Source: a virus (lineage: Duplodnaviria; Heunggongvirae; Uroviricota; Caudoviricetes). Taken from it: a stretch of DNA of 64,000 bases. The stretch spans positions 32,466 to 96,465 of the IMG/VR virus record IMGVR_UViG_3300035520_000350; one strand, given 5' to 3'. The stretch's first letter is position 1; the number at the start of each line of letters is the position of its first letter. Under the pieces are notes generated by a model. The model saw only the letters and a program-made list of their open reading frames with translations, was not told where the DNA came from and ran no database searches. Made by a program: the position numbers and the translations under genes. Positions 1,004 to 38,500 of this stretch are shown here, one piece after another.

Positions 1004-1627
1004 ATGGTAAGTAAAGGTACCACTATGAGTAAACGAATGTCTAAGATACTGGGAAAGAATGTATCTGATGTTATAGAGACAGATCTATACTGGTACGGTA
1101 TAGACTTTGTAAAGGAGGTTTATAAACAGATGTGTATAGTAAACACAGTAGAGAAATATATAACTATTAAGACTGATAGAAGAGAGTGTGAAATATATGT
1201 AGACAATAAAGGTCCTAAGTATATCTGTAGCTTATCTTTCTTCAATAATCTTGGTATAGAACTACTTAAGCTAGAGTTCTCTGAGTGTATGGCTGTATCT
1301 GTAATAGATGCTATATACTCTTATGAAGACTTTAATATGAAAGACATATCTATTCCAATAGATAGTGTAACTATTCCAGGTATAAGTTATATTCTAAAAC
1401 TAGATAGAGATATGACTAATAACTGTATGAGTCATATGACAATATTTCAACATAATATCTTATATCCCAATTCTTATATTCCAGTAGTAAGTTGTAGTCT
1501 TACTTCTGATAATATTCTATCTGATTTCTTATATGCTATGTACTTCTCTTGGATAATAGACTTAGATAACTGTAATGATATATCTCTTGAAGAAGGATTA
1601 TATTCAGCAATGATTAACCAATCATAA
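1004..1627 (+). CDS. Hypothetical protein, 207 aa.
   Basis: ORF preceded by AAAGGAGG 7 nt upstream of the ATG. Confidence 0.6.
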   Translation: MVSKGTTMSKRMSKILGKNVSDVIETDLYWYGIDFVKEVYKQMCIVNTVEKYITIKTDRRECEIYVDNKGPKYICSLSFFNNLGIELLKLEFSECMAVSVIDAIYSYEDFNMKDISIPIDSVTIPGISYILKLDRDMTNNCMSHMTIFQHNILYPNSYIPVVSCSLTSDNILSDFLYAMYFSWIIDLDNCNDISLEEGLYSAMINQS

Positions 1628-2465: not shown

Positions 2466-3116
2466 ATGAATAACGAAAGGACAAGGTGTAATGATGAAGT
2501 ATTACAAAGTACTATTGAAGTTCTAAATAGTATTATAGAGGCTTTACAAGATACTGTAAATAACGGTAAAAGTCTTGGAGAATCTTGTAGAGAAAGAAAT
2601 CTCTTGTATAAAAAAGTAAGATCTTTAGTAATGGGTATCAGTAGTTACAATATTCTCATTAATGAGAACTTAAAAGAGATAGAGTTACCAGAAGAAGATG
2701 GATATGAAAAGTTATATAGAGAAATCTTTAACTTATCTAAGAGTGATAACTTTTCTTTTCCAGTAGACTTAAAAGAAACTATAGATATTGTTATTGATAA
2801 TGCCTTAACTGAAAGGGAGAAGAAGATATTATCTATGAGATATGCTTTAGGAGAATTTGAGTACGATTCTACCTTTGAAGAGATCGGGAAAGTATTTAAC
2901 GTAAATAAAGAAAGGATAAGGCAGATAGTATTAAAGGCTATAAGAAAGCTTAGAAATCCTAAAAGATCTAAAGTTATTAGAGATGGTATTGCTAGTTATA
3001 AAGAAGCAACAAGAGAGAACGAAATAATAGCAGAAGCAGCTAAAGAAAAGCGTATAGCAAAAATGCAGGAGTTTAAAGAACAAGTAAAGAATGGCTTAAT
3101 TACTAACGGTAATTAG
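2466..3116 (+). CDS. Sigma-70 region-4-like HTH protein. Region 2 is not recognisable.
   Basis: LTEREKKILSMRYAL...STFEEIGKVFNVNKERIRQIVLKAIRKLRNPKRSKV matches sigma-70 region 4.2 (RIRQIE.KALRKLR). The N-terminal 110 aa is unrelated to sigma region 2. Ends with TAG at 3114-3116. Confidence 0.65.
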   Translation: MNNERTRCNDEVLQSTIEVLNSIIEALQDTVNNGKSLGESCRERNLLYKKVRSLVMGISSYNILINENLKEIELPEEDGYEKLYREIFNLSKSDNFSFPVDLKETIDIVIDNALTEREKKILSMRYALGEFEYDSTFEEIGKVFNVNKERIRQIVLKAIRKLRNPKRSKVIRDGIASYKEATRENEIIAEAAKEKRIAKMQEFKEQVKNGLITNGN

Positions 3117-3395
3117 CAACAGATATTTGAATATCTAAGAGATAAACCGTTAGATGATAGTTTAGGTCTTAGTTCTAGAGCTTATAACTGTATTAAGAGA
3201 GGTACTTGTTATACGAACTGTGCTCAGTTTGTTACTTTAACAGATGAGACTCTTCTTAAACTTAGAAACTGTGGTGACGTTACTCAAAAAGAAATTAAAG
3301 GTAAGATACAAGAACTTCTCGATGAATACTATGGTGGGGTAGTAACGAGAAAAGACTTCTTAGATCTTATCGAGAAGAAGATTATAAAAGTGTAA
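3117..3395 (+). CDS. RNA polymerase alpha-subunit C-terminal-domain (alpha-CTD) like segment. It is in frame directly after the TAG of the sigma-4 ORF and has no ATG/GTG/TTG start. It is either expressed by stop-codon readthrough or is a pseudogene fragment.
   Basis: The translation QQIFEYLRDKPLDDSLGLSSRAYNCIKRGTCYTNCAQFVTLTDETLLKLRNCGDVTQKEIKGKIQELL matches the alpha-CTD helix-hairpin-helix (E. coli [48 protein letters not shown]). It spans 92 codons to TAA at 3393-3395 with no in-frame start codon. Confidence 0.4.
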   Translation, partial: QQIFEYLRDKPLDDSLGLSSRAYNCIKRGTCYTNCAQFVTLTDETLLKLRNCGDVTQKEIKGKIQELLDEYYGGVVTRKDFLDLIEKKIIKV

Positions 3396-3456: not shown

Positions 3457-3549
3457 ATGGAATTACCTAAAAACATTATGGAACAATTTGGTGTAAAGGA
3501 AGATCCTTTTAAACCTTATGAGTATTTCGATGATGTCCGGTTACCTTAG
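3457..3549 (+). CDS. Tiny ORF, 30 aa (MELPKNIMEQFGVKEDPFKPYEYFDDVRLP).
   Basis: Strong SD GGGAGGAAG 6 nt upstream of the ATG. Confidence 0.25.
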   Translation: MELPKNIMEQFGVKEDPFKPYEYFDDVRLP

Positions 3550-3576
3550 GGTTGTATCGGTGGAGGATTCTCCACT

Positions 3577-4269
3577 ATGGAAGTAATGATTGACGGTATA
3601 TATCTGCCGAGGACTACACTTGATTCTATTAACAGAATAAGAAAAGAGTCTACTGAAACTCGTAAGGGAGAGTTATTATCTCTTAAGTCTATGGAGAAGA
3701 ACTGTGCAGTCCGGCAATTCCTTATTGATAATATCGATAAGGTAAGAACCTTGCCTAGTAGATCTGGGACAAATAACGTGGTTATGTACTTTGCTTATGA
3801 TAAGAGTACCTTGACGTTTAAGTTTTTCTTCTATAAAGATAGATTTATTACGACAGGTAACGTTCAGCATCATAGAGTATATAGCCGGATGTCAAAAGAG
3901 GTAGATCTTAATGATAAAGACAATAAAGACTATAACTTAAATATCTTTAAGTATATGGTTGAGAATGGTCTGTTCGATGAACTGGAGTTTATTCCGTTCG
4001 TTATACTGGAGGCTAACCTTTGTCCGTCACATAAAGCTTACGTTAAGTATGTAAAGGGTAATGAGTTACCGGTTAAGGCGTTTAATAATCCGGTATACGG
4101 AATCAATATAAAGAACTCCGAGGATGTGATGTGCCGATTGACAGACTGGTTCGAGAGGGGAGGATCTATCAAAGACTACACCCAGTACCTTATCTTGGTA
4201 TGTAAGGATGATAGTAGCAAGTACTACTTGAGAAATTATAGAAAAGCAACAGAAGGAGGAACAGAGTAA
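3577..4269 (+). CDS. Hypothetical protein, 230 aa. Paralog of the 4269-5029 gene.
   Basis: C-terminal block FIPFVILE...PVYGINIKNSEDVMCRLTDWFERGGSIKD...YLILVCKDDSSKYYLRNYRK recurs in the 4742-5029 reading frame. Confidence 0.6.
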   Translation: MEVMIDGIYLPRTTLDSINRIRKESTETRKGELLSLKSMEKNCAVRQFLIDNIDKVRTLPSRSGTNNVVMYFAYDKSTLTFKFFFYKDRFITTGNVQHHRVYSRMSKEVDLNDKDNKDYNLNIFKYMVENGLFDELEFIPFVILEANLCPSHKAYVKYVKGNELPVKAFNNPVYGINIKNSEDVMCRLTDWFERGGSIKDYTQYLILVCKDDSSKYYLRNYRKATEGGTE

Positions 4270-4745
4270 TGAATATAGATAGAGATATCTATGTATCTAT
4301 AGATGCAAAAGATAACGAAATACCGTACCAGAATTTTAGTGACGAGGTATTACCTTTCGGTCATGATGATCTTAACAATAAGTCTATTAAAGTATTGAGA
4401 GAGATTAACAAGATAAGGGACACTGCAGAGAGTCTAGCAAGAGGAGATATTATTAGTAGAGAGGTATACTCTAATACGATATATAAAGACTTCTTGTTAG
4501 ACAACATTTCTAAAGTTATGAAAGTAAAAGATGATTCTGGTATAGCATATCAACATATCTTCTGTTACTTTAAGTACTCTAGAGCAGGAATGAGGTTTGA
4601 TATTATATTTAAACCTCATGCTCTTAAGTATGATGATCCGATACAAAGAGAGATATTCAATGCTTGGGATAATGAAGAGGTGTTGGATAATATGTCTGAC
4701 ATATATAAACCTGAAGGTAAAGAGAAATCTTTAAGTTCCTGGTAG
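4269..4745 (+). CDS. Hypothetical protein. It is the N-terminal part of a frameshifted paralog of the 3577 gene.
   Basis: The ORF ends at TAG 4743-4745. Homology to the 3577 protein continues in the -1 frame from about 4721. Confidence 0.5.
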   Translation: MNIDRDIYVSIDAKDNEIPYQNFSDEVLPFGHDDLNNKSIKVLREINKIRDTAESLARGDIISREVYSNTIYKDFLLDNISKVMKVKDDSGIAYQHIFCYFKYSRAGMRFDIIFKPHALKYDDPIQREIFNAWDNEEVLDNMSDIYKPEGKEKSLSSW

Positions 4746-5029
4746 AAAAAGGATACTTTGAGAAGTTCGAGTTTATACCGGTAGTGTTTCACGATGGAGT
4801 GGTAATAGATATCACTCACAGAGCATACACTGATAAGAAAGGTAAGAGAATTAAGGAATGTATATGTCCTGTATACGGCATCAATATCAAACGCTCTGAA
4901 GAGATTATGAATGGTTTATCTGATTGGATTAAGAAAGGATACGTTATTAAAGATCATAATAGGTATCTCGTATTAACCTGTAAAGAGGATAGAAGTAAGT
5001 ATTATCTTAAGAGGTTTGAAGAGAAGTAA
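4742..5029 (+). CDS. C-terminal part of the frameshifted paralog (-1 frame relative to 4269-4745). The conserved domain is EFIPVVF...CPVYGINIKRSEEIMNGLSDWIKKGYVIKD...YLVLTCKEDRSKYYLKRFEEK.
   Basis: The frame-2 translation from 4721 (REIFKFLVEKGYFEKFEFIPVV) aligns with NIFKYMVENGLFDELEFIPFV of the 3577 protein. The only conventional start is GTG at 4784. Confidence 0.45.
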   Translation, partial: VEKGYFEKFEFIPVVFHDGVVIDITHRAYTDKKGKRIKECICPVYGINIKRSEEIMNGLSDWIKKGYVIKDHNRYLVLTCKEDRSKYYLKRFEEK

Positions 5030-5038
5030 ACATAGCTA

Positions 5039-5075
5039 GGAGGTGGTTAGATCCTAACCACCTCTATTTTTTCTG
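5039..5075 (+). terminator. Rho-independent terminator.
   Basis: AGGTGGTTAG-ATC-CTAACCACCT followed by CTATTTTTT. Confidence 0.6.
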
Positions 5076-5939: not shown

Positions 5940-5990
5940 ACAGAAAGAGCGTAGGGTATATACCCTACGCTCCCCTTTTATTTTTTATAC
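5940..5990. terminator. Bidirectional terminator shared by the convergent genes 5153-5938 (+) and 5985-12023 (-).
   Basis: GAGCGTAGGGTATATACCCTACGCTC hairpin with an A-run on the left and a T-run on the right. Confidence 0.6.
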
Positions 5991-8900
5991 TTTTGTATCA
6001 TCATATGGTATTCCAGCCATATCTTTACAAGTTCTGTCTAACTCAACCATTAACTTCTGTAAAGCACCATAAGTAACAGTACTTTGTACCATACGTTTCT
6101 GAATTGAAGTTACACTAACGAAAGCAGAGATATGTTCATTAGGTCTGAAATCTGTATAAGGTTCTTTACCTTCTGGTATTACCTTACTTATAATAGCCTT
6201 ATTAGCAGCATTGTAAGTAATCTTATCTCCTACTCCTAAGATATCAGTGTATTCGATATAGAACTCAATCAATATACTGTCATAAGACTTCTTAAGTTTA
6301 CCAGTAGCATCTAATGGATAATCTGCAGGTAAGTCAGTATACTCAATACCTTCTTCCTTAAGTTTACTCTTTAACTCATGTATTGGTTTTTCATAAGCTT
6401 TAACAAGCTTTCTTAAAGAATCAGACATCTCATCATAGTCTACTGTTCTGTATATCTTAATACCAGCTATTCTACCAGTAACTTCTGCCTTAACAGAATG
6501 TCTTCCTAATTCAGATACAGCTTCTTTATCATTAGCTAAAGCTTTAAGCAAAGCATTTACTTCCTCTTCATCATACGGAGTTTGCCATACAAGAAGATTC
6601 TCTCCTTGCTCTATATGCTGTCCCACTTTAACTACGTTATAGATATTAGTATCCTTATCAAGAACACAATCTACTTTACCAATGATGTCACAAGATAACA
6701 TCTTAGCCATTTCTTCTGTAATAACACCAGAATCTTCAAATCCCTCATCAGTATTGATAATAGCTATCTTAGCTAACTTACCTACGTTGTAAGCAAGATT
6801 ATCTGTCTCTCCTAAAGAGTTAGATAAGGATAAATGATCATATGCTAAGATCTGTCCAGGTTTAAACTTAGAACCTACTTTAAGCTTCTCATCAGCATCT
6901 AACTTAAGAGGTACATAGAATCCACCATCAGAGTTCTTCTCTATTGTTTCAGACAGATTGATGTAATCTTCTGTACCGTCGTCATACTGTATAATCATAT
7001 AACTTTCAGTGAGTTCTTTAACTACTCCCTTACTCTTAGCTTTATAAGCAAACTGATCTGAACAGATATAAGCTAAAGCTTCATCAGAACCATTAGTAAC
7101 TAACAAAGGATCTGATTGTTCTGTTCTTACAGCATGTTTAGAAGTCTGGATGAAAGACATAGCAATACGCATAGGATCATCATGAGTAGCAATAAATGGC
7201 ATTACTGCTTCAGTAGCTGTTAATACTTTAGCAGTATTCATATTATCTGTCTTACCCTTAGAATCTTTTACATATCCTCTTCCTCCCTCTATATTCATAT
7301 CAAGAGTAGCCTGACGTGTAATACCTACATTACCAGAGAAACCAGTACTCATACCTACTACACCAAGCATAGACTTATCATAAGTTCTTTTATCAAGAGA
7401 GTAAGATCTATCACTATTCATACCTGATAAACCTTTGTATGTAATAGCATTAGTAGTCTCTACATCATTAAGAAGATTATTAACAGAGTAGTCACTAGAT
7501 GTAGGGTCTAACATGATCTTATCTATGACAGCAGATTGCTTACAACTAAATGGAGCCTGAGTTCTATTATGTTTTAAGCTATTAGCATATATACCATAAG
7601 TTTCACTCATAACCTGATAAGTATAAGCTGCTACTAACTCATAACGCCTAGCTCTTCTTGAAGAAGTATCTGTATGTCTGATAAACTTATTATCCGATAA
7701 CAGATAGTTTGCATACAGTAATACAGAGATATACTCTGTAGGAAGTTTATAGTATTCAAGAGTTTCTTTAGTGATAGGATCTATCTCACAATCATAGAAG
7801 TTATCCAGACCATCAGCTTTAATCCTTCCACCATAATCTTCTAAGAACTCAAGATACATATTCTTATCATCCACCTCAGTGAATGAATGAGATAATGTAT
7901 CACAATCTTTAAAACCAGATAAGAGTAAAGAAGAGTTATAGTCTACTCTATATACTAAGTAACCATCGCTAAATCTTATCCAGTCTAAGCTAATGTTATT
8001 TCTATCCTCAGAAGAAAGTTTCTCTGTAAATCTATACTCTATATTAGCCTTCTTTAAGATCTGAGTCAATCCTTCAGAGTAAGAGCAAACAATAATAAGA
8101 GGAATCTCTTCTCCCATAATCTTAGCTCTAGTATAAGTAGAACCAGTAGCAGACTTAGCAGAAGAGTATAACTCATAGAAATCACTATTTGTCTCATATG
8201 TCATATCCCTTACTAAAGTATCAATGAAAGGAATGGTATCTTTGTTACTATAGTATACAAGATGCTTATTCTCCTTATCATAAGCATAAGGAGTTCCTAA
8301 GCCTTCATTTACTTCATATAACTCTCTAATCTGATCCTGATTGAAGTAGAAGATGTACTGCTTTGTTTCTATAGTAGTGAATACACCAGAGAGATCAATA
8401 TAATCTATAGGAAGGTTATATTTAGCACAGATTCTAGAGTTATTACCTTCTACAAACTTTATCTTGTTACCAGTATACTTACTAGCAGCTTTGATAAACC
8501 TACTTACATTAGGAAGAGATCTACCAGATACTGTATTGAATCTGGATATGATAATCTTCTTGTAGTTAGTAACTATCTGACAAGTATCTAAGTCTACCTT
8601 AATGATAGGCATATTGAAGAACTGTGTCTGAATAGTCTTAGCATTACCTCTAAGTAAGAATCTATCGTTTCTGATCTTCGGTATATCAAGTTTAATAGTA
8701 TATCTCTTTCCTCTATAGTCTTCATACTCTACAGTATACAGATCAAGTCTATCCTCAGAAGTAGAGTTATCTTCTGCTTTGATGTTTCTTACAGATAAAG
8801 GTCTTGATACAGTAGAGAAGTGCTTAAAGATATTAACTAAGTCCTTCTCTATATCGTAATTCTTATCGAAGTTCATATACTGCATATGATGCCACTCTTC

Positions 8901-11900
8901 GTTAGGAGAAGATACCGGAAGATTAGATACTGGTAATTCTTGTTTCTTCTTAGAGTTGTCTTCGTCTAAGATTTCTCTTATAGATCTTCCTTTAAGTTCT
9001 TTATCAAGAAGCTCTTTATCTAACTGAGTCATTCTCTCAGCACGAGCTACATTGATATTGACAGAATCATCTTTCATAGAATCTAATCCGGAAAGCAATT
9101 CCTTCATGTCAATATCATCTTCCATAGCATCTAAAGCATCATCTGTATCTACAGCATCATCAGCAGCCTTATCCACTTTATCTACTATCTGCTTCATTAC
9201 TTCCATCTCTTCTTCTGAAGAGTCTCTAGCAATGGAAGAGTTAGCAGTAAGTTTATCTACATCTGGTTCTTCTGTAGGTTTTTCTACTGTCTTCTTTTCC
9301 TTAGGCTTATCATCCTTCTTTACTTCATTAGGATTACGGCTTCCTTTAGAATTGACATTAGACGTTACTTCTACAGTATCATCTTTCTTAGTCTTCTCAT
9401 CCCTTACTTTCTTGTCTACAGCAGTTAAGTCTACTCCCTTAGAAGCTTCAATCCTATCATAAATATCTGTCTTAATAGCATCTTTAGTAGGAGTATCTTC
9501 CGTAGTATCAATATCAGCCTGATCAAACTCTTCACCCTTATTGATCTTGATAATGAAGTTCTTAAACTTCATAGCATTTCTCTTACTATTAGCAGTATCA
9601 GTAAAATCAACAGTGAAGTACTTGTTCTCACCAAAGAATACTACATCAATACCTTTGAAGAGTTTCTTTAATCCTTCTGGATCTCTGAGCATTAGCTCAT
9701 AGATAATAGAGATAGGATCGATATCTTCTCTGTATAACCACATCCTTGTATTAGGATTCTTATACCAGTCATTGATAGAGATAAAGACTGTAGTTCTCTT
9801 ATAACCAGCAGACTTGATTCTCTTATCATTGATAAGTCTATCAAGAAGCTCTTTATATAAACCAAAGCTACGCTTGATACTCCAATCATTGTTCTTGAAG
9901 AATGCTTGCTGATAGTAATACAAGTCAACAAACAGATTTCTCTGATCATATCTATCTAAGTCTACATAAGTATACTTGATATAAGGAACATCTGCTTTTA
10001 CTCTATCAAGTAACAGAGTAACTTCTTTACGCTTAACCATTCTTTCCTTATATAAGATTCTCTTAAGAGCTGGATCATAAGTAGCATCCTCTAAGATAGT
10101 CACATAGTCTCCGTTTATGATATAAGAACCTTCTTCTAAGGAACTAAGCATAGACTCAGACATACTTTCTTTATCTTCTGTATTGGAACTAGAAGTAGGT
10201 GTAGTAGGCTGAGGAATATTTACTTGTAACTGATCCTTTACTGTATCCATAAGATTCTTAGTCTTATTACGGATTCTTCCGTTATACATTTTAGTCTTGG
10301 TACTTGCTCTATACTTAAGACTATTAGTAAGACTAGAAGCAGTAATATCCTTAGACTCTACACATAAGTCCTCTGGTGCGTCAAATTCAGTTACCCCATA
10401 TCTTCTAGCTAAAAGATATAAATCGTTTAAATTTGACTCACTTAAGATTTTATAAGCACCTGATAAGGTATTCTCTGAAACCATATTGTAGAAAAACATA
10501 GCTCTTTGTGTAGACTTACCTGTAAAGCATTCTGCTACACAACCAGGGATTACAGTATGCTTTAACTGAGGAAATCTAAGAGCTACTAATCCAGCTATAA
10601 CAAGTTCTACTATACAAGTAGGATATGTGTCTGGATACTCTGTAATAAGACTAGAAATACATTCTACAGTAACCTTATTATCTTCTGTTTCAATAGACTC
10701 TACATTAGAAGCAATAAGAGATAACTCCGGAATATAGTCAAAGCCTAACTCTGTTTCAGACAGTATCTCTGAATACATATCAGGAGTAATAATCTGCTTA
10801 AGCAGATCTATATCCTGTACATAACCAGAGAATTTAATCTTATCATTGATATAGAGAGTATCAGTAGGACTAATAGTAGGGATAAGATATCCCTCTAATC
10901 CACTCTCTTTAGGTAATGGAACCCATGATACGGATTCTTCCATAACAAAGCTTAAAGCTTTCTTATGCTCTGGAGTAAGCTTACTATATACCTCTTTGAT
11001 ATCATAGAACTCTCCAGTAGTCATAAACTCATCTATATCTACAGTATCAAGATTTCCAGAGTAAGTATCAATAGCAGTTCCTACAAATACCTCTGTATAG
11101 AAACCATAGAATCTGTTTTCAGGAGGAAGATCTTTCTGTGTAGTAGTATCCGGATCATCCTTAAACATCTCTACATATCTTACTCCTGTATCATAAGCAG
11201 CTATAACTTCTAATCTAGCTTCTTCTCTACATTCTCTTATAGTACCTTCAAGATGAGATTCATCTGGTTCAAATCCTCCACCGGGAACTTTATAAGTACC
11301 ATCCTCTTTAAAGACTAAGTATACCTTAGTACCAGTCTTATCAAGAATAAGCATTTCTCCTCTACCTCTAAGAGGTTTCTCTACACCAGATACATTAACA
11401 ACACAGTTATATGTACCATCGTTATTATAGTAGCCTCTCTCAGAAGTAATATTGTAGGACTCTGTAAGTACACCAGATTCATTAGTATACTTATAATATT
11501 TCTTGAATCTGTTATTATCACCTACTTTAGGATAAGAATCCTTACAGAACTTACCGATAGCCCTATTAAGATTTTTAGCTAACTCTGCTTCGTCTTCCTT
11601 GTCTACATAGTTAAAGAACTTAATAGCAGACATTACATGAGCTTTACTATCTAAAGGATACTTTCTCTTCTTTGGTAAACCAAAGTCAGAACTCTTTAAA
11701 GCTTTACGCTCTGCCGCTGTCATTTCACATAAACTCTGATAGATATCTACTTCTCTACATTCTCTTACATAACTCTCTGTAACATCATCCACCTTATTCA
11801 TTACCTTAGAGCTAATGAAGTAGGTAAGATCTTTCTCAATATAATAAGACTGGAATCTTAGCTTATTGATAAGCATATTAGAGTTTAAGAGATTCTTAGA

Positions 11901-12023
11901 AGACTCATAGTTAGGAGTAAGTAAGTAGATAACAGAGTGCTTCTTCTTATCACCATCTACTGTTGGTAGAAACAATGGTCTCTTATAAACCTTAAGAGGT
12001 TTAAGATTCTCTAACAAAAGCAT
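5985..12023 (-). CDS. Giant 2012-aa protein. The N-terminal region carries a Nudix hydrolase box. The C-terminal ~680 aa resembles the C-terminal half of the RNA polymerase beta subunit (RpoB).
   Basis: The Nudix box GGGFEPDESHLEGTIRECREEARLEV at aa 248-273 (nt ~11205-11282) fits GX5EX7REUXEEXGU with the G replaced by R. GDKITYNAANKAIISKVIPEGKEPYT matches RpoB GDKMAGRHGNKGVISKIxPxEDMPY. GLSGMNSDRSYSLDKRTYDKSMLGVVGMSTGFSGNVGI resembles RpoB [47 protein letters not shown] before the ATG at 12023. Confidence 0.6.
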   Translation of the reverse strand: MLLLENLKPLKVYKRPLFLPTVDGDKKKHSVIYLLTPNYESSKNLLNSNMLINKLRFQSYYIEKDLTYFISSKVMNKVDDVTESYVRECREVDIYQSLCEMTAAERKALKSSDFGLPKKRKYPLDSKAHVMSAIKFFNYVDKEDEAELAKNLNRAIGKFCKDSYPKVGDNNRFKKYYKYTNESGVLTESYNITSERGYYNNDGTYNCVVNVSGVEKPLRGRGEMLILDKTGTKVYLVFKEDGTYKVPGGGFEPDESHLEGTIRECREEARLEVIAAYDTGVRYVEMFKDDPDTTTQKDLPPENRFYGFYTEVFVGTAIDTYSGNLDTVDIDEFMTTGEFYDIKEVYSKLTPEHKKALSFVMEESVSWVPLPKESGLEGYLIPTISPTDTLYINDKIKFSGYVQDIDLLKQIITPDMYSEILSETELGFDYIPELSLIASNVESIETEDNKVTVECISSLITEYPDTYPTCIVELVIAGLVALRFPQLKHTVIPGCVAECFTGKSTQRAMFFYNMVSENTLSGAYKILSESNLNDLYLLARRYGVTEFDAPEDLCVESKDITASSLTNSLKYRASTKTKMYNGRIRNKTKNLMDTVKDQLQVNIPQPTTPTSSSNTEDKESMSESMLSSLEEGSYIINGDYVTILEDATYDPALKRILYKERMVKRKEVTLLLDRVKADVPYIKYTYVDLDRYDQRNLFVDLYYYQQAFFKNNDWSIKRSFGLYKELLDRLINDKRIKSAGYKRTTVFISINDWYKNPNTRMWLYREDIDPISIIYELMLRDPEGLKKLFKGIDVVFFGENKYFTVDFTDTANSKRNAMKFKNFIIKINKGEEFDQADIDTTEDTPTKDAIKTDIYDRIEASKGVDLTAVDKKVRDEKTKKDDTVEVTSNVNSKGSRNPNEVKKDDKPKEKKTVEKPTEEPDVDKLTANSSIARDSSEEEMEVMKQIVDKVDKAADDAVDTDDALDAMEDDIDMKELLSGLDSMKDDSVNINVARAERMTQLDKELLDKELKGRSIREILDEDNSKKKQELPVSNLPVSSPNEEWHHMQYMNFDKNYDIEKDLVNIFKHFSTVSRPLSVRNIKAEDNSTSEDRLDLYTVEYEDYRGKRYTIKLDIPKIRNDRFLLRGNAKTIQTQFFNMPIIKVDLDTCQIVTNYKKIIISRFNTVSGRSLPNVSRFIKAASKYTGNKIKFVEGNNSRICAKYNLPIDYIDLSGVFTTIETKQYIFYFNQDQIRELYEVNEGLGTPYAYDKENKHLVYYSNKDTIPFIDTLVRDMTYETNSDFYELYSSAKSATGSTYTRAKIMGEEIPLIIVCSYSEGLTQILKKANIEYRFTEKLSSEDRNNISLDWIRFSDGYLVYRVDYNSSLLLSGFKDCDTLSHSFTEVDDKNMYLEFLEDYGGRIKADGLDNFYDCEIDPITKETLEYYKLPTEYISVLLYANYLLSDNKFIRHTDTSSRRARRYELVAAYTYQVMSETYGIYANSLKHNRTQAPFSCKQSAVIDKIMLDPTSSDYSVNNLLNDVETTNAITYKGLSGMNSDRSYSLDKRTYDKSMLGVVGMSTGFSGNVGITRQATLDMNIEGGRGYVKDSKGKTDNMNTAKVLTATEAVMPFIATHDDPMRIAMSFIQTSKHAVRTEQSDPLLVTNGSDEALAYICSDQFAYKAKSKGVVKELTESYMIIQYDDGTEDYINLSETIEKNSDGGFYVPLKLDADEKLKVGSKFKPGQILAYDHLSLSNSLGETDNLAYNVGKLAKIAIINTDEGFEDSGVITEEMAKMLSCDIIGKVDCVLDKDTNIYNVVKVGQHIEQGENLLVWQTPYDEEEVNALLKALANDKEAVSELGRHSVKAEVTGRIAGIKIYRTVDYDEMSDSLRKLVKAYEKPIHELKSKLKEEGIEYTDLPADYPLDATGKLKKSYDSILIEFYIEYTDILGVGDKITYNAANKAIISKVIPEGKEPYTDFRPNEHISAFVSVTSIQKRMVQSTVTYGALQKLMVELDRTCKDMAGIPYDDTKV

Positions 12024-25987: not shown

Positions 25988-28900
25988 ATGTATATGAAAA
26001 TCATTAAACGTAGTGGTGTAGAAGATACTTTTGATCCCAGTAAGATTGATATAGCTATCAGAAAAGCTAATGATACAACATTAGATGATTCAGATAAGCT
26101 TAATGATGAACAGATTAAGGGTATCGTAGACTATATTATTAATTACGCTCAGGATTGTGGCAGATCTCTTAATGTAGAAGAGATTCAAGATCTCGTAGAA
26201 GAGCGTATAATGGATGCAGGTGCTTTTGAAGTTGCTAGATCATATATTACCTACAGATACAAAAGAGCATTAGTAAGAAAGACAAACTCGACAGATGATG
26301 CTATATTATCTCTCGTTAGTTGCAACAACGAGGAGATTAAGCAGGAGAATTCTAATAAGAATCCCTATATTAATAGTACTCAGAGAGACTATATTGCCGG
26401 AGAGGTAAGTAAGGATATTACTAGACGATTGTTACTGGATGAAGATATCTGGGATGCTCACGAGAATGGACTCATCCACTTCCATGATGCAGATTATTTC
26501 TTACAACCAATGACGAACTGTTTCCATTCTGATACTGAATTTGTAACGGATAAAGGAGTGGTAAGATTTGGAGATTGTCATGAAGGTGAGAGGATATTTG
26601 TAAGAAACATTACCGGAAATTATGTACCAGCGATGGTTCATAAATATGGTAAACAGAAGATGCAAACTGTTACCTTTAGATCGTGTAGAACTGTTAAGAC
26701 AGTTAGATGCACGTATAACCACAGATGGGTGTTAAAGGACGGAACTATTACTGAATCGTTAAAAGTAGGAGATTCATTGTATCCGACTGTAGATACAACA
26801 AATACACCAATCAATAATCCGTTTATGTTCTGCTTAGGGTTTGTACTTGGAGATGGATCTGATTTTGCCGGAAGTAATATATCAGAGCCTACTGGTGTAA
26901 GAGTTCGTTTATGCGGTAACAAAACTCAATATTTGCCTCATTTTACATTGGCAGGATTTGATATATCAAAAGAGAAATTTCATAATGGAGATATGTCTGT
27001 TACTTTTAGCAAGTATCCATTAAAAAAGAATTTTATTAATGGGTTTGGTTGGCGGTTTCTTTCTTTATCTGATAAGATTGATCTATTTAAGGGGTATTAT
27101 GCTGCAGACGGAAATACTCTTTCAAATGGAATAGCTACAGCAAATCATATATTAGCTCAGATGATAAGAGAGATTTCTGCTTTAGCCGGATACTACATAA
27201 CAAGTGAAAATTTTGAAATTAGGGACACTAATTTCAAGAAAGGAGCTAGTTTATGGACGTTCAGATTTATGAAACGTCAAAGTATTAATAGATGCTGGAA
27301 AGTAGAATCTATAGATAGATCTGATTATCACACATATGACGCTTGGTGTGTAGAAGAACCATCTACTCACACTTTTACTCTTGGAAATGGAATGGTCACT
27401 GGCAACTGTTGCCTCGTTAATCTAGAGGATATGTTGCAGAATGGCACTATCATCTCTGAAACAATGATTGAAACTCCTAAGAGTTTCTCTACTGCTTGTA
27501 ATGTAGCAACTCAGGCTATTGCACAGATTGCAAGCAACCAGTATGGCGGACAGTCTATTACTCTTTCCCATCTTGCTCCATTTGTTGATGTAAGTAGAAA
27601 GAAGATCATAAGGAAAGTAATAGAAGAGTTTGAGACTCTTGGCATTGAGTATACCGATGAGATGGTAAATAATGTTACCGAGTCTAGAGTAAAGGAAGAG
27701 ATCAAGAGAGGTGTACAGACTATTCAGTATCAGGTTATTACTCTTATGACTACTAATGGTCAGGCTCCTTTCATTACAGTATTCATGTATCTTGATGAGG
27801 TACCGGAAGGACAGACTAGAGATGACTTAGCAGCTATCATTGAGGAAACTCTTAACCAGAGATACTTAGGAGTAAAGAATGAGAAAGGTGTATATATTAC
27901 ACCGGCGTTTCCTAAGTTAATCTATGTCTTAGAAGAGGACAATATCCATGAAGATTCTAAGTATTGGTATCTTACTCAGTTAGCAGCAAAGTGTACTGCT
28001 AAGAGATTAGTACCGGATTACATCTCTGAGAAGAAGATGAGAGAGTATAAGAATGAAGATTGTTATCCTTGTATGGGATGTAGATCATTCTTAACTCCTG
28101 ATAGAACAGTAAGAAATTCTGCTAAAGCGTTGAACTACGAAGAAGGAAAACATAAATACTACGGAAGGTTCAACCAAGGTGTTGTTACTATTAATCTTGT
28201 AGATGTAGCTTGTTCTTCTAATGGAGATGAAGATGAGTTCTGGAGAATCCTTGATGAAAGACTTGAGTTATGCTATCGCGCTTTGATGGCTAGACATAAG
28301 AGATTAGAAGGAACTGTATCTGATGTAGCTCCTATCTTATGGCAGAACGGAGCTTATGCAAGATTAGAGAAAGGAGAAGTAATAGATCCACTTCTTCATG
28401 GTGGATATTCTACTATTTCTTTAGGATATGCAGGACTCTGTGAATGTACTGTAAGAATGACAGGAGTAAGACATACTGATCCTAAAGGAACTCCTTTTGC
28501 TTTAAAAGTAATGCAAAGACTTAACGATGCATGTGCTGAATGGAAAGCTAAAGAAGATGTAGACTTTAGTTTATATGGAACGCCGCTTGAGTCTACAACT
28601 TATAAGTTTGCTAAGTGCTTACAGAAGAGATTCGGTAAGATTCCTGGAGTTACTGATAAGAACTATATCACTAACTCTTATCATGTACATGTAACAGAGC
28701 AGATGAATGCTTTTGATAAGTTAAAGTTTGAATCTCAGTTCCAGGTATTATCACCAGGAGGAGCTATCTCGTATGTAGAAGTTCCTAATATGCAGAACAA
28801 TATCCCGGCTGTATTATCAGTGATTCAGTTTATCTATGATAATATCATATATGCTGAATTGAATACTAAGAGCGATTATTGCATGAACTGTGGTTTCGAT

Positions 28901-29032
28901 GGCGAGATTCAGATAGTAGAAGATGAAGACGGTAAGCTCGTTTGGGAATGTCCTTGCTGTGGAAACAGAAATCAGGACACAATGAACGTAGCTAGACGTA
29001 CATGTGGATTGACTGCCAATAGTCCACGTTAA
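25988..29032 (+). CDS. nrdD: Anaerobic ribonucleoside-triphosphate reductase (class III RNR, NrdD), interrupted by an intein.
   Basis: N-terminal ATP-cone (KIIKRSGVEDTFDPSKIDIAIRKA...). C-terminal 4-Cys zinc ribbon CMNCGFDGE...CPCCGN, then a glycyl-radical-like RRTCGL near the C-terminus. SD AAAGGAG. Confidence 0.75.
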   Translation: MYMKIIKRSGVEDTFDPSKIDIAIRKANDTTLDDSDKLNDEQIKGIVDYIINYAQDCGRSLNVEEIQDLVEERIMDAGAFEVARSYITYRYKRALVRKTNSTDDAILSLVSCNNEEIKQENSNKNPYINSTQRDYIAGEVSKDITRRLLLDEDIWDAHENGLIHFHDADYFLQPMTNCFHSDTEFVTDKGVVRFGDCHEGERIFVRNITGNYVPAMVHKYGKQKMQTVTFRSCRTVKTVRCTYNHRWVLKDGTITESLKVGDSLYPTVDTTNTPINNPFMFCLGFVLGDGSDFAGSNISEPTGVRVRLCGNKTQYLPHFTLAGFDISKEKFHNGDMSVTFSKYPLKKNFINGFGWRFLSLSDKIDLFKGYYAADGNTLSNGIATANHILAQMIREISALAGYYITSENFEIRDTNFKKGASLWTFRFMKRQSINRCWKVESIDRSDYHTYDAWCVEEPSTHTFTLGNGMVTGNCCLVNLEDMLQNGTIISETMIETPKSFSTACNVATQAIAQIASNQYGGQSITLSHLAPFVDVSRKKIIRKVIEEFETLGIEYTDEMVNNVTESRVKEEIKRGVQTIQYQVITLMTTNGQAPFITVFMYLDEVPEGQTRDDLAAIIEETLNQRYLGVKNEKGVYITPAFPKLIYVLEEDNIHEDSKYWYLTQLAAKCTAKRLVPDYISEKKMREYKNEDCYPCMGCRSFLTPDRTVRNSAKALNYEEGKHKYYGRFNQGVVTINLVDVACSSNGDEDEFWRILDERLELCYRALMARHKRLEGTVSDVAPILWQNGAYARLEKGEVIDPLLHGGYSTISLGYAGLCECTVRMTGVRHTDPKGTPFALKVMQRLNDACAEWKAKEDVDFSLYGTPLESTTYKFAKCLQKRFGKIPGVTDKNYITNSYHVHVTEQMNAFDKLKFESQFQVLSPGGAISYVEVPNMQNNIPAVLSVIQFIYDNIIYAELNTKSDYCMNCGFDGEIQIVEDEDGKLVWECPCCGNRNQDTMNVARRTCGLTANSPR
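26519..27406 (+). mobile_element. Intein of 296 aa with a LAGLIDADG homing-endonuclease domain, inserted after HFHDADYFLQPMTN of NrdD.
   Basis: Begins with Cys (CFHSDTEF) and ends ...HTFTLGNGMVTGN, followed by the +1 Cys (CCLVNL). Two LAGLIDADG-like blocks, LGFVLGDGS and LFKGYYAADGN, lie about 85 aa apart. Confidence 0.7.
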
Positions 29033-33360: not shown

Positions 33361-33465
33361 CTGCCAAAGAAAAGAGAGAAATGATTATGCGGTTTTCGTA
33401 TATAGAAACACTTGTTGTACTATCAGCATAAAAACAAAACCTGTACAATGAAAGGAGTATTAAAA

Positions 33466-34953
33466 ATGAGTATGAACTTAGCAGACGCATTAAGAGAAGA
33501 CTCGAAATGGACAGTAACAGAGAACGGAGCAGATGCAAAGAATACCACTGGTAATCCTTTGCTTGATCTGTATGCAACTATTGGATCGTTAAGACAACGT
33601 GATGAAAAAGAAATCATCATGAAGTTTATCTTAGCATTCAATCATGATAAGCAGGGAGCAGTTCGGTGCTTATTCTATGCTCGTGATATCAGAGGTGGAC
33701 TCGGCGAACGTAATACGTTCAGAGTAATCTACAGATACATGGGCGATGCAATGCCTGAGATCGTAGAAGAGTATCTCGGTCTTATTCCGGAGATGGGAAG
33801 ATTTGATGACTTCTATGCTTTGATCGGAACAAAGGCAGAGGATGCTATGTGGGGATATGTAGGTGAGCAGCTTTCGCTTGACCAGAAGTCTATGATCGCT
33901 GGTAAGCCGTGTAGCTTATTAGCTAAGTGGCTTAAGAAAGCTGATTCTAAGAGTAAAGATACCAAGGCTCTTGGAATCTATACAGTAAAGAAGCTTGGTA
34001 TCTCCGTCTACGAGTACAAGCGGTTATGCAATAAACTCCGCAAGTACATCAACGTAGTTGAGGTAAAGATGAGTGAGAATAGGTGGACCAAGATTGAGTA
34101 TGATAAGGTTCCATCTAAAGCTATGCTCAACTATACCAATGCATTCAAGAGGCATGATGAACAGGGCTTCTCTAAGTATATCTTGAATGTAGAGGAAGGA
34201 ACCCAGAAGATCAACACCAGCACTCTGTATCCTTATGATATCGTGCATAAGTATCTGTACGAGACAGGATCAAAAGAGTTGGAAGTAATGTGGGATAATC
34301 TTCCGGATTATCTTAACGGTGTAGAGTGCAATGCTTTAGTCATTGCAGATACATCCGGATCTATGACGTGGGACGGCGGTATGCCTATCTCAAGTGCAGT
34401 AGGTCTCGCTATCTACTTTGCAGAACGTAATAAAGGAGCATTCCATAACCTCTTTATGACGTTCTCATCTCAGTCTAAGATTCATTCTATCGATGGATTG
34501 AAAGGACTGGCTCAGAAGATTAATTTCGTAAAGTCTTCTGATTCATCTTGGTGTGGTAGTACTGATCTTGAAGCGGCATTTACAAGGGTTCTCTACGTAG
34601 CAACACAGAACAAGGTTCCGAAGGAAGAGATGCCCAAAGCATTCATCGTTATCTCTGATATGGAGATCGACAGAGCAACAGAAGATGATAATGAGCATCG
34701 GCAGACATTCTACGATGCTATGAGAGCAAAGTATGCTGTGTTTGGTTATGATCTTCCGAAGATTATCTTCTGGAATGTAAATTCTCGGCATGATGTATTC
34801 CATTCTGATGATCAGAATGACAATACGTTACTTGTATCTGGTCAGTCAGCTAGTACATTCAAGAATATCATCCAGTGCATTGATAAGACTCCGGTAGAGA
34901 TGATGTATGCTGTACTCAACTCTGAGAGATATTCTGTAATCAATATCGAGTAG
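33466..34953 (+). CDS. vWA-domain protein with Ro60/TROVE-like architecture: an alpha-helical N-terminal domain plus a C-terminal vWA with a MIDAS motif. Possible Rsr/Ro60 ortholog or DUF2828-like.
   Basis: The MIDAS motif LVIADTSGSM aligns with Ro60 VLALDVSASM. Further Ro60 vWA-like blocks are WCGSTDLEAAF, KAFIVISDMEIDRA and KIIFWNVNSRHDVFHSDDQNDNTLLVSGQS. The likely start is ATG 33466 with SD AAAGGAG; the ORF track starts at 33412. GC is above the local average. Confidence 0.5.
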   Translation: MSMNLADALREDSKWTVTENGADAKNTTGNPLLDLYATIGSLRQRDEKEIIMKFILAFNHDKQGAVRCLFYARDIRGGLGERNTFRVIYRYMGDAMPEIVEEYLGLIPEMGRFDDFYALIGTKAEDAMWGYVGEQLSLDQKSMIAGKPCSLLAKWLKKADSKSKDTKALGIYTVKKLGISVYEYKRLCNKLRKYINVVEVKMSENRWTKIEYDKVPSKAMLNYTNAFKRHDEQGFSKYILNVEEGTQKINTSTLYPYDIVHKYLYETGSKELEVMWDNLPDYLNGVECNALVIADTSGSMTWDGGMPISSAVGLAIYFAERNKGAFHNLFMTFSSQSKIHSIDGLKGLAQKINFVKSSDSSWCGSTDLEAAFTRVLYVATQNKVPKEEMPKAFIVISDMEIDRATEDDNEHRQTFYDAMRAKYAVFGYDLPKIIFWNVNSRHDVFHSDDQNDNTLLVSGQSASTFKNIIQCIDKTPVEMMYAVLNSERYSVINIE

Positions 34954-35423: not shown

Positions 35424-35538
35424 AATCCTCTAACCTTTTTGTCTCACTTTACTTTATTTTTTCTTTTCACCCCTAATATGGAGTATCCCGAACATCTACA
35501 TAATCATGAAAAATTTTAGTAAAGGAGGCAAAGAGAGT

Positions 35539-38500
35539 ATGGCTAATGCATTACAATACGTCAAAAATGTGGGTAAGTCTTTTGGCTACTCAACAATAGA
35601 GATGCTAGAGAGTTATAACCCACAGATAAAAACCTTAGCCTCTCAAACTAAGGCTTTTGGTTCTGATCTATACCAGACTATTGATGATTTCAAAGCTAGT
35701 ATGACAGACACTGGATCGGAAAAAGGTTTACTTAGTTTAGGAAAAGATAGTATAAGTGAACTTAAGAAGAATCTGTTTGAAGATTTGAAATCTGGTAATT
35801 GGTATAACAAAGCCAGAGCAGAAGAAGTAGAAGGTGCTGCCGTTGCCGATATGTTTGGTTTCGACGACGAAGATTTTAATCTTGATGACTTAGATCTTGA
35901 CTTCTCTGATGATGATTTTGGAGAAGATAATGATGACTTAGCAGCCACCTTTGTTGAAGCGGAGAAAGAGTCTACCGATTCTATTGTAGGAGCTTTAGAT
36001 GAAGTAGGTAATAAAGCTTCACATGCTGTTGCTACTGCTACAGTAAGTTCTGCTGACTTCATTGTTACTTCTAATAGACAGAGTAGTAGAGCATTATATA
36101 GTCTTAACCAGAGAGGATTCCATGATCTTGCTACTGGTTTAGGAGCTATCAATGCTAATATATCTACTATAGTTTCTATGGGCGAACCGTTAACAGCTCA
36201 TATGCAGAATGCTGCAACGTTCTATACTAAGTCTAGTGAATATCAGGATAAAGTACTGGAGAGACTTGACATTCTTGTCAAGTTTGCTAGTCCTGAATCT
36301 AAGACTACTAATTATAGAAAAGAAGGTACTCTTGATTCTATTCTTAATGATGGAGTATTAGATCTTTCCTCATACTTTGATATGCTTATGGGAAGATTCA
36401 AAGACTTTAAAGACGATATTATCGGTATGCTTGATATGCTTGGTGGTCCTGAAGCAGCCATTAAGATGGTTACTGCATCTCCACTTAAGTTCCTTACTGA
36501 TAATCTTGTAAAGTTTGTATTTCCTACAATGATTAAGAATAGTATGCAACAGTTCAATCAGCATCTTGAATCTTTCTTTGGTGCAGCTATTGATAAACTT
36601 CAGTATGCTACTCCAGATGGTGATATTGGAAATCTCTTCGATATGATAAGAGATTACGTAATGCCTAAGAGTGGATATAAAGATAAGATTGATACTAGTA
36701 TGTATCTTAAGGGTAAAGCAGAGTGGACTGGTAAAGACCAGAAAGCTTTGAGAGATGTAATCCCTACTTACCTAGCTCAGATCACTTCTGCAGTAACAGG
36801 TAAACCTGAGACAAGATATGATTATGAGAGAGGTAAGTTTATTACCATATCTGGAATAAAGAATGAGTTTGATAGCAAAGCTAAGAGATATGCTCAAAGT
36901 GCAGGTGGAGACTTCTTATACGATGCTTTAGATGTAGTAAGTAAGTTGGGTCTTAATCCGGAAGATCAGAAGAAGATGAAAGATCAGATCAATGAATTCT
37001 TCCTGAATATGTTTAAGACCGGTAAAGGTGAGATAATGAATCTCCAGAAAGATAACTTTGAATATCAGAAGTATGGATTAGATGATGATAGTGTCAAAGT
37101 TCTGAGAGATATGCTTAATAGCTATGCTAAACTTCATAAGACAGATGTAGCAAACATGGCGGCTACTGAAATGCGCCTACAGAGGGATAGATATGGCGAT
37201 GAGCTTAGAGGTATAGAAGCTAACGGTGGTATCTTTACCTCTCTTTTTGATAACTCTTCTTTACCTACTACTGGAGAAAAGGCTGTTAAAGTAAGACCTG
37301 GTGGAATACTTGGAGTAGATAAGTATAATCATGATCTATTCTTCTACCTTCAGGGTATCTATCAGTATACTGGTCATCTTTCCGACAATATTGGAATACT
37401 TGGTGGAGGATCACCAATCAATCCTAAGGGAGGAAGTTATCGTAATAGAGGTAAAGGTGTTGAACCTACTCCTATTAAGGATATTCCTTATGAGTCTACT
37501 GAGGAAGAGAAGGAGAAAGCTTCTAAGGATAACTCCAATGCTCAGCAGTCTACTGCTCAGTCTAAAGCTCAATCTGTTTATGATACTATCTTTAGTAGAC
37601 ATGAATACGATGAGGGATTCACTGGACAGAGAGAGAAGAAAGATAGACGAAAAGAAGAAGCTAAGTCTAAGTTAGATGCTGACTTAGATGCAGGTGTAAT
37701 CTCAGAAGAGGAGTATAAAGAGAAGATTAAAGAACTTGAGGAAGAATCTAGCAATGCATCTACAGAAAAGTTCTTTAAACGTATGAAAGAAAAAGGTGCT
37801 AAGAGTGAGAAACTTTCTGGTATCAGAAAGGTTATGGATAAGATTCATGGCATCTTTAATAAGCCTGCTGAAGTAGTTAGTGAGATATTAGGAGCAGGAG
37901 AGATATCTATGTATCATCTTCTTTATGGCAAAGGAGGGGATGACGAGAAGGGTATCTTTGCTTACTTCTATGAGAAAGCAGATAGTCTCTTTACTAAGTT
38001 TGATAAATTCTTCGAGGATAAGTTTGACTTCAGTATCAAGTCTTGGTTCAAGAAAATGTTTGGTAAAGCCAAAGATTCAGATTTTGTTCAAGAGACAGGA
38101 GAAGAACTTAAGAATGCTGGAAGAAGTGTATGGGATGATGTAAAGAGATTCACTGGTTTTGGTACCCCTAGTGATGAGAAGGAAGATAATGGAGAGGGAG
38201 AAACTGAGCCTATAGATAATGGTCAAGCAGCAACTGGACGTAAAGTAACTAAGACTGGTATTGTTGCTGTATCTGAAGGTGAGATGATTATCCCATCTGA
38301 ATATAATCCTTATTATCATGGAACTAATGACAAGAAGACTCAGCTTAAGAACGAAGCTAATGCAATAAAGAAGTTCTATGGTAGATATGCTAGAGGTGGA
38401 TTTGCGGGAGCTGCTAAACAAAGCTATGATCCTGAAACAGAAGAGTGGATATACTACGATGCAGAGGGAAATGAGATCGGTAGAAGAGAAGCTACTGAGA

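Follow-up and report, generated by a model that had tools for sequence, protein, structure and literature searches.

The gene at 2466-3395 of a 64,000-nucleotide (nt) stretch of a tailed phage genome (Caudoviricetes; IMG/VR record IMGVR_UViG_3300035520_000350, positions 32,466 to 96,465; the whole stretch is called the window here) is very probably a recently truncated allele, lying amid the loss of an accessory operon, of a gene that fuses region 4 of a primary-type sigma factor (sigma4) to the alpha subunit's C-terminal domain (alpha-CTD) from RNA polymerase (RNAP). As part of the same reading, the intact protein would be a free-standing mimic of the promoter-recognition module that the host enzyme uses upstream of the transcription start.

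The preliminary description of this DNA, prepared from the window alone, had proposed local read-through or suppression of the TAG between the two domains as the way in which the alpha-CTD is produced, and had kept a recently disabled fusion gene as its fallback. Its domain calls, its view of the two domains as one unit and its fallback are upheld by the analysis reported here, and its preferred recoding reading is not, since sister strains carry GAG in place of the TAG within an intact ORF (open reading frame) of 309 codons, and the adjacent genes of the window bear two further lesions, a TGG-to-TAG change and a 1-nt deletion. An in-frame stop between two good domains in a lone genome can mimic recoding where sister strains reveal a nonsense mutation, and population variants are worth checking before recoding is claimed.

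The fusion gene, its sister alleles and its putative operon

The elements of the fusion gene in the window are the following.

2466-3116, plus strand: truncated sigma4-alphaCTD allele of 216 residues, in which a helical N-terminal part precedes sigma region 4 and a long linker helix (ORF list and translation)
2802-2957, plus strand: sigma-70 region 4 segment (4.2 helix-turn-helix, HTH), residues 113-164 (Pfam PF04545, phmmer, Foldseek)
2988-3110, plus strand: single long helix, residues 175-215, predicted to connect the alpha-CTD of the intact protein to its sigma4 (AlphaFold)
3114-3116, plus strand: apparently derived amber codon, TAG here and GAG (Glu217) in sister strains (DNA alignments)
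3117-3395, plus strand: stranded 3' part of 92 codons and a TAA, with an alpha-CTD-like helix-hairpin-helix domain at about 3156-3314 (translation, Pfam PF03118)

In translation, the frame thus consists of a 216-residue ORF, the TAG, 92 sense codons and a TAA at 3393-3395. Profile searches with Pfam matched Sigma70_r4 (PF04545) at residues 113-164 of the ORF with 55.6 bits against a gathering cut-off of 24.1 (E=3.9e-15), and RNA_pol_A_CTD (PF03118) at residues 14-66 of the downstream segment with 38.3 bits against a cut-off of 23.8 (E=1.1e-9). No match to Sigma70_r2 or Sigma70_r3 was found by Pfam in the fusion ORF even at E<=1, nor was the alpha N-terminal domain (RNA_pol_L / RNA_pol_A_bac) found; of the alpha families, PF03118 alone is matched in the 92-residue segment and likewise in the intact 309-residue protein of a sister strain (P0183). 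Since it has neither the core-binding region 2 nor the alpha N-terminal domain, the intact protein is, on its domain content, neither a sigma factor nor an RNAP subunit. The best solved-structure matches found by phmmer are both from Bacillus subtilis, namely SigA region 4 (7ckq_F 287-369, the C-terminal 83 residues; E=1.3e-15), in which TRERIRQ aligns to the KERIRQ motif of the window sigma4, and the alpha-CTD (3ihq_B and 1z3e_B; E~4e-7).

An AlphaFold model of the 216-residue product has a mean predicted local distance difference test score (pLDDT) of 85, with helices at 102-173 (sigma4) and 175-215 (the linker, at a pLDDT of about 95-98), and Foldseek superposes the modeled sigma4 on SigA region 4 structures with a root-mean-square deviation of 1.2-1.8 A over about 70 residues. 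The N-terminal 100 residues are modeled as a few helices with modest confidence; the Foldseek matches are driven by sigma4 and do not bear on a sigma3-like fold for this part. In NCBIfam the fusion ORF matches the C-terminal part of RpoD models only, far under their equivalog cut-offs, and matches to MzaA (PADLOC / NCBIfam) were set aside as merely local similarity to sigma4.

Sister strains were obtained by searching the fusion sequence against a collection of 5.8 billion proteins and then comparing the contigs that encode the matches. The search returned the 216-residue product itself and two proteins that have both Pfam domains, one 96% identical and the other 35% identical and 351 residues long. 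The sister contigs come from JGI (Joint Genome Institute) assemblies (L001 and L012/L018), from a fourth JGI sample (L013; 3300035498) and from a Logan assembly of another run (L019), and are 96.7-97.9% identical to the window DNA overall, with 97.3% over 2.5 kb for L001 and 97.9% over 13.4 kb for L012/L018. A sense codon in close relatives, for which the preliminary description had proposed to look, is found in all of them, four contigs that stem from three other samples: the codon at 3114-3116 is GAG (Glu), with identical flanking bases. The protein is uninterrupted in L012/L018 and L019, where its 309 residues equal 216+1+92, and the L012 form (P0183) carries both Pfam domains; more distant family members are likewise uninterrupted at the linker. 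Therefore, the sense codon is regarded as ancestral, and the alignments indicate that the TAG is a derived G-to-T substitution in the codon for Glu217 and not a conserved recoding site. Downstream of it, the alpha-CTD segment has only two differences from that of L001, both conservative. Because this substitution turned GAG into TAG, the window phage would make a 216-residue protein without the alpha-CTD, and the 92-codon remainder would go untranslated apart from background amber read-through by the host.

The two genes that follow are also damaged in the window, and the unit ends in a hairpin.

3457-4269, plus strand: second gene, 270 residues in sister strains, with TGG changed to TAG at 3547-3549 (alignment, codon table)
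4269-5029, plus strand: third gene, 253 residues in sister strains, divided by a 1-nt deletion near 4727 into 4269-4745 and 4784-5029 (alignment)
5039-5075, plus strand: terminator-like hairpin and T-run closing the three-gene unit (terminator scan, consensus match only)

The hairpin has a 12-bp stem in which 6 pairs are GC, with ATTTTTTCTG after it, and this feature together with the gene spacing suggests that the fusion gene, 3457-4269 and 4269-5029 form one operon. The second gene is intact as a 270-residue protein (P0176) in L012 and L001, and the third as a 253-residue protein (P0186 and P0187); the deletion in the latter, at alignment column 1918 (GAGAAA-TCT versus GAGAAATTCT), splits the 253-codon ORF into 158 and 81 codons. 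Programmed -1 frameshifting at this indel was rejected in favor of a plain deletion, no X_XXY_YYZ heptamer being seen at the site on inspection. Over the 13.4 kb shared by L012 and the window, ORF lengths compare as 309/216, 270/230 and 253/158+81 for the three genes, and the other real genes, including a 2012-residue RNAP beta-like gene nearby, keep their lengths. Differences from L001 are mostly synonymous in both damaged neighbors (12 synonymous and 8 nonsynonymous in the second gene, 12 and 3 in the third), suggesting that the two were under purifying selection until recently and that their lesions are recent.

These second and third genes are tandem paralogs, with 24% identity in the N-terminal part and 47% in the C-terminal part of their alignment, and they share the C-terminal motif PVYGINIKxSE...DW...G..IKD...YL.L.CK.D.SKYYL. 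Neither belongs to a Pfam, PHROG or PADLOC family, and their homologs were not found outside the lineage of the window phage; an AlphaFold model of the second gene product (pLDDT 36) was unusable. A repeated motif 5' of the fusion gene, AGTGTCTTG, was considered and dropped, as it shows no enrichment in the window.

A further lesion is found in L013, which keeps the GAG but has a 41-nt deletion (window 2728-2768; L013:9769-10657) between TTAA microhomologies that shifts the frame of the fusion gene, and in which the gene upstream (207 residues, window 1004-1627) is shortened to 158 residues. Lesions therefore recur in this accessory region, and by its position and kind the L013 lesion of the fusion gene is evidently independent of the window TAG. 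Taken at the level of sequence, the operon with its three lesions is one that is decaying or counter-selected between intact flanking genes.

It is also necessary to consider that the TAG could be a sequencing or assembly error for a true GAG, since it is a single-base difference from the relatives and the assemblies that support it may share reads. Two pipelines, Logan (SRR11794512) and JGI (3300035521), assembled the TAG allele with 100% identity over 13.1 kb and 1.9 kb, and 2466-3116 is identical in the contigs L002 and L003; a sub-variant of the TAG lineage with a 15-nt deletion (L014) also bears the second TAG and the frameshift; and three errors in one operon with zero in the neighboring 10 kb would be odd. 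An error is, in our judgment, a very improbable explanation.

A separate observation concerns the C-terminal tail of sigma4 at window 2955-2969, which corresponds to H600-R603 of cellular sigma factors. Four amino-acid changes fall within five codons there (RKLRNPKRSKV in the window, RKLRKPSKAKV in the sisters), a cluster that suggests either a recombination patch or selection on that surface.

Read-through, suppression and other accounts of the TAG

TAG is a normal stop elsewhere in the window, as had been stated in the preliminary description: it terminates 11 of the 52 non-overlapping ORFs, among them genes with family matches near their ends (68-904, phrog_12252; 33412-34953, DUF7788). Recoding was assessed with ORF sets in which TAG, TGA or TAA was treated as sense, and with a list of stops that are flanked on either side by 50 or more open codons. 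Within the window, treating TAG as sense lengthened ORFs no more than treating TGA or TAA as sense, and genome-wide recoding was rejected because neither the ORF sets nor the stop list gave a TAG-specific signal. The TAG at 3114 has 226 open codons upstream and 92 downstream, by far the longest two-sided frame among TAGs in the window, and no other TAG there has long open frames on both sides; for DNA of roughly 32% GC, the chance that 92 codons stay open behind a stop is estimated at ~7e-4, the domain match not counted. In-frame TAGs number only two (3114 and 3547), both within one operon, with none in other genes of the window, including the ORFs of 3599, 2012 and 1014 residues. These tests were null, the amber codons stand in place of two distinct amino acids, and the remaining lesion is an indel; support is accordingly poor for programmed read-through, for local suppression and for code reassignment alike.

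Programmed read-through of this TAG would, like that of some viral genes, yield two isoforms, a short one with sigma4 only and a minor one that is the sigma4-alphaCTD fusion, and it would explain why an open frame of 92 codons with an intact domain and no start of its own follows the stop, and why that segment is so close to the one in L001. The segment contains no ATG, GTG or TTG on direct reading except a GTG as its final codon, in agreement with its earlier description as start-less. In addition, the stop is followed by C, and TAG-C is a comparatively leaky stop context. However, every relative found has GAG at the site and matches the window in the downstream context, which means that the locus has not acquired a read-through signal; the family at large lacks a stop in the linker; the neighboring genes bear another nonsense mutation and a frameshift; and an undecayed downstream segment is what a very recent mutation would leave. 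Like stop-recoded phage genes and known read-through genes, this locus has an in-frame TAG between two coding segments, but unlike them its TAG is not conserved, TAG terminates genes elsewhere, and a second nonsense codon and a frameshift lie alongside. Read-through is consequently considered improbable.

The two halves might instead act as separate proteins, the alpha-CTD being started at an ATA or ATT codon, both of which occur early in the segment, or by termination and reinitiation after the TAG, a process known in bacteria near stop codons. No Shine-Dalgarno-like sequence precedes 3117-3160, the standard ATG, GTG and TTG starts are missing, and the split form is confined to the window lineage, making this the least probable of the explanations weighed here.

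Several points nevertheless weigh against a truncated and disabled allele, and the first of them concern suppression. Two amber codons within 430 nt are the pattern expected of a suppressor-dependent switch, and only the frameshift and the relatives oppose such a switch. Expression could depend on a tRNA(CUA) elsewhere in the genome, or TAG could be reassigned, as happens in gut phages and huge phages that are recoded; tRNA genes are frequent in jumbo phages, some of which use genetic code 15. The tRNA scan covered about 82 kb of a contig that the protein collection lists at 242,978 nt, and the remaining ~160 kb could hold a suppressor. In the part that was scanned, which comprises the window, 7.5 kb upstream (L002) and 10 kb downstream (L009), no tRNA(CUA) was found; tRNA-Tyr(GTA) is the sole tRNA of the window (ARAGORN, Rfam), and neither flank holds a tRNA of any kind, so that the suppressor search suggested earlier came out negative for this portion of the contig. 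Against suppression or reassignment, TAG ends ORFs with near full-length family matches, is absent in frame from other genes and brings no special gain in ORF length when read as sense. The two TAGs stand for different amino acids (Glu and Trp), and the indel in the third gene is beyond repair by any tRNA; because of these differences, no single suppressor would restore all three genes. Thus, we attach only a very slight probability to this explanation.

The other points on that side bear on how far the locus is disabled and on the replication of the result. The 216-residue protein may still be functional because it retains sigma4, in which case "disabled" possibly overstates the damage, and the second gene may be rescued by a restart at an ATG at 3577, which is preceded by GGAGGA and could yield a 230-residue product. 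The Logan and JGI assemblies with the TAG allele may derive from one sample, so their agreement confirms the assembly and is not an independent biological replicate. With respect to the role proposed below for the intact protein, DNA binding or decoy activity is argued from residue conservation and analogy, and the alpha-CTD of the window lineage has diverged, with D/V at the backbone-contacting K297/K298 and S/G at the acidic 261 patch.

The sigma4-alphaCTD family and its putative function

The recently truncated allele belongs to a larger family. A search of 1.84 billion representative proteins used a profile made from the window segments and two proteins (P0002 and P0003), and at least 135 clusters (50% identity) matched the whole of it at E<=1e-30, nearly all of them 320-360 residues long and occurring on phage-like metagenomic contigs; the window lineage's own match (P0002) has E=4.7e-100. 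The usual order of parts is an XRE-type HTH_3 domain, a region with the motif PYPYNLLDxIF, Sigma70_r4, a helical linker (median 74 residues, range 53-106) and RNA_pol_A_CTD, and the Sigma70_r4 part terminates in RKLRHPSR exactly as in primary sigma factors. Short members (206-236 residues) lack HTH_3, as does the window lineage, in whose window and L012 proteins Pfam found no such domain and in which the PYPYNLLD region has a weak counterpart only (GYEKLYREIF aligned to YPYNLLDxIF). The sister allele P0183 has the parts that define the family, namely Sigma70_r4, a helical linker and RNA_pol_A_CTD, and the window copy has them split by the TAG. The architecture that had been suspected from one sequence is therefore conserved in a large family, which appears to be real and uncharacterized.

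Residues that contact DNA are strongly conserved among 145 members, in E. coli numbering of both domains: in sigma4, E585 (88%), R586 (99%), R588 (92%) and Q589 (98%), and in the alpha-CTD, R265 (99%), N268 (94%), G296 (99%), K298 (K/R in 83%) and S299 (S/T in 93%). In cellular RNAP, alpha-261 and sigma R603 touch when the alpha-CTD and sigma4 sit adjacent on UP-element promoters; among the same members, position 261 is acidic (D/E) in 76% and R603 is kept in 75%. Owing to the substitutions at K297/K298 and in the acidic patch, DNA binding by the alpha-CTD of the window lineage may have been weakened already before the truncation.

Some relatives are longer and chain further modules of host transcription (P0106, P0111, P0131, P0137 and P0150; Pfam). 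One of 1003 residues has three Spo0A_C, one Sigma70_r4 and three RNA_pol_A_CTD domains; two of 949 and 983 residues have four RNA_pol_A_CTD domains, Sigma70_r4 and HARE-HTH; and two of 596 and 678 residues have Sigma70_r4 and two RNA_pol_A_CTD domains. The relatives with Spo0A_C and HARE-HTH would fit a collection of modules that contact the host transcription machinery better than they fit an ordinary repressor. The genomic surroundings of two family members were inspected, and each lies among dozens of small co-directional genes, with neighbors that encode an integrase, HNH, anti-CRISPR-like and anti-restriction proteins, dUTPase and endonuclease V; this setting is a phage early region.

The family went undetected in the collections of cultured phages, plasmids and species-representative genomes. 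By tblastn with the fusion and P0030, the fusion was absent from 50,697 GenBank phage records (INPHARED) and 72,556 PLSDB plasmids, where the matches were rpoD-like and limited to sigma4. A megablast search with 12 kb gave no match among public phage genomes, IMG/VR searched with P0002 and GTDB genomes searched with P0030 gave none, and a scan of JGI metagenome contigs returned one locus only, with sigma4 alone. In 596 Gb of species-representative genomes the family motif was met just three times; two GTDB loci that contain it were dismissed as spurious, the match in the one inspected (Ruminococcus sp. YE71) lying outside any family-type ORF and adjoining an ordinary extracytoplasmic function (ECF) sigma factor. 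NCBIfam has no model specific to the family, and literature searches turned up no description of a sigma4-alphaCTD fusion, no characterized member and nothing relevant on the sample accessions.

Based on these features, the intact protein would bind DNA on its own and imitate the module with which the sigma-A holoenzyme of Firmicutes recognizes the upstream part of a promoter: sigma4 would occupy a -35-like (TTGACA-like) hexamer, and the alpha-CTD the A/T-rich minor groove next to it. Bound in this way, it could occlude strong sigma-A promoters, or it could titrate factors that dock on sigma4 or the alpha-CTD. Such a host-directed accessory factor could be dispensable for a phage that has its own multisubunit RNAP, and a dispensable function would fit the two independent natural knockouts, which suggest an accessory role or one that carries a cost at times.

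Comparison with known systems places limits on this proposal. Homology of the fusion to region 4 of primary sigma factors (SigA; ~540-613 of sigma70) is clear in both sequence and fold, and the motif (K/R)ERIRQ, which contacts the -35 element, is kept, as is the basic patch K593/R596/K597/R599; unlike a primary sigma factor, it lacks regions 1.2, 2 and 3 and should therefore be incapable of -10 recognition, of DNA melting and of sigma-like binding to core RNAP, and its sigma4 is not the end of the protein, being followed by a long helix and an alpha-CTD. Similarly, it keeps R265, N268, C269 and G296 of the RNAP alpha-CTD, with B. subtilis domains as the top structural matches, but it lacks the N-terminal assembly domain of alpha, departs from it at 297/298 and 261 in the phage lineage, and in the window has the domain cut from translation.

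In phage T4, sigma appropriation by AsiA and MotA targets the interface of sigma4, the alpha-CTD and the upstream promoter, and ORF67 of the Staphylococcus aureus phage G1 reportedly binds domain 4 of SigA; PDB 4g6d, which is among the sigma4 matches obtained with phmmer and Foldseek, is presumably linked to that ORF67 and SigA domain 4. The fusion plausibly has the same target, namely upstream recognition by host RNAP at -35/UP promoters, and its gene likewise lies in an early or accessory phage region. However, AsiA, MotA and ORF67 bind sigma4, whereas the fusion copies sigma4 and the alpha-CTD, and mimicry or competition, not binding and remodeling, would be its mode of action.

The sigma-type HTH of cellular sigma factors contacts the promoter and the beta-flap. 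The minimal sigma factors with a single HTH and the gp33-like factors that jumbo phages encode (PMC7824862) resemble the fusion in being small phage proteins with a sigma-type HTH core, but the fusion occurs in a phage with its own RNAP and carries an alpha-CTD. Jumbo phages of group 1, which have their own RNAP, have been reported to lack a sigma factor, and an alpha-CTD fusion is not mentioned in that review of jumbo phages (Iyer et al. 2021, PMC7824862).

The modules found across the family (sigma region 4, alpha-CTD, Spo0A_C and HARE-HTH) suggest that Firmicute phages have repeatedly built proteins from the parts with which host RNAP contacts promoters. It is conceivable, although we consider it rather unlikely, that the more than 100 relatives, long forms included, constitute an undescribed class of phage "RNAP-module mimics" that bind -35/UP (and 0A-box) DNA or sequester regulators, thereby shutting off or re-routing sigma-A transcription, and that the knockouts reflect a conditional cost, such as the triggering of host defense. 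Competition with, or mimicry of, the upstream module of the holoenzyme would, if true, be a new phage route to interference with host transcription.

Genomic setting and other features of the window

The window DNA is low in GC (32-41%). Near the fusion operon, a gene on the minus strand (5985-12023) encodes a 2012-residue protein that matches the beta-like subunit of phage multisubunit RNAPs over residues 814-1999 (phrog_3148, E=1.7e-147), with nearest cultured relatives at about 30% identity in jumbo phages of Firmicutes (AR9/PBS1-like, Listeria LPJP1 and Staphylococcus S6-type). Its ~800 N-terminal residues include a NUDIX hydrolase domain (residues 229-352, Pfam E=3.2e-6). The RNAP beta subunits of jumbo phages are usually split, and an N-terminal, NUDIX-containing fusion to a beta-like subunit is, to our knowledge, an unusual arrangement.

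Two other large genes were noted on the plus strand. An anaerobic ribonucleotide reductase (NrdD, 25988-29032) of 1014 residues has an ATP-cone at residues 3-94 and matches the NRDD model in two stretches, the best from residue 468; up to ~370 residues between the stretches are uncovered and could be an insertion or an extra domain. The 3599-residue ORF at 35506-46305 is tape-measure/lysin-like, with PHROG tape-measure and endolysin matches within its last ~1100 residues only and no PHROG match in the first ~2400.

Between 20250 and 24900 (plus strand) lies an ORF-poor stretch of 4.65 kb that is strongly depleted in C (~10% C, ~29% G), in which no minus-strand ORF has a PHROG match and no Rfam match was found. 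It is composed of dozens of degenerate (NNNGT)n-like direct repeats, with the GT dinucleotide recurring at a period of ~5 nt and a frequency of 0.141 (versus ~0.05 in coding DNA), autocorrelation of 3.05x at lag 5, 2.1x at lag 10 and ~1.8x at lags 15-16, and stops about every 11 codons in all plus-strand frames. By coordinate arithmetic, the Logan contig with L002 should stop near window 20040. Finally, about 6.7 kb past the right end of the window, the Logan and JGI assemblies of one strain differ at an intergenic G10/G11 homopolymer (L009:18225 / L010:9624) and nowhere else over 10.6 kb.

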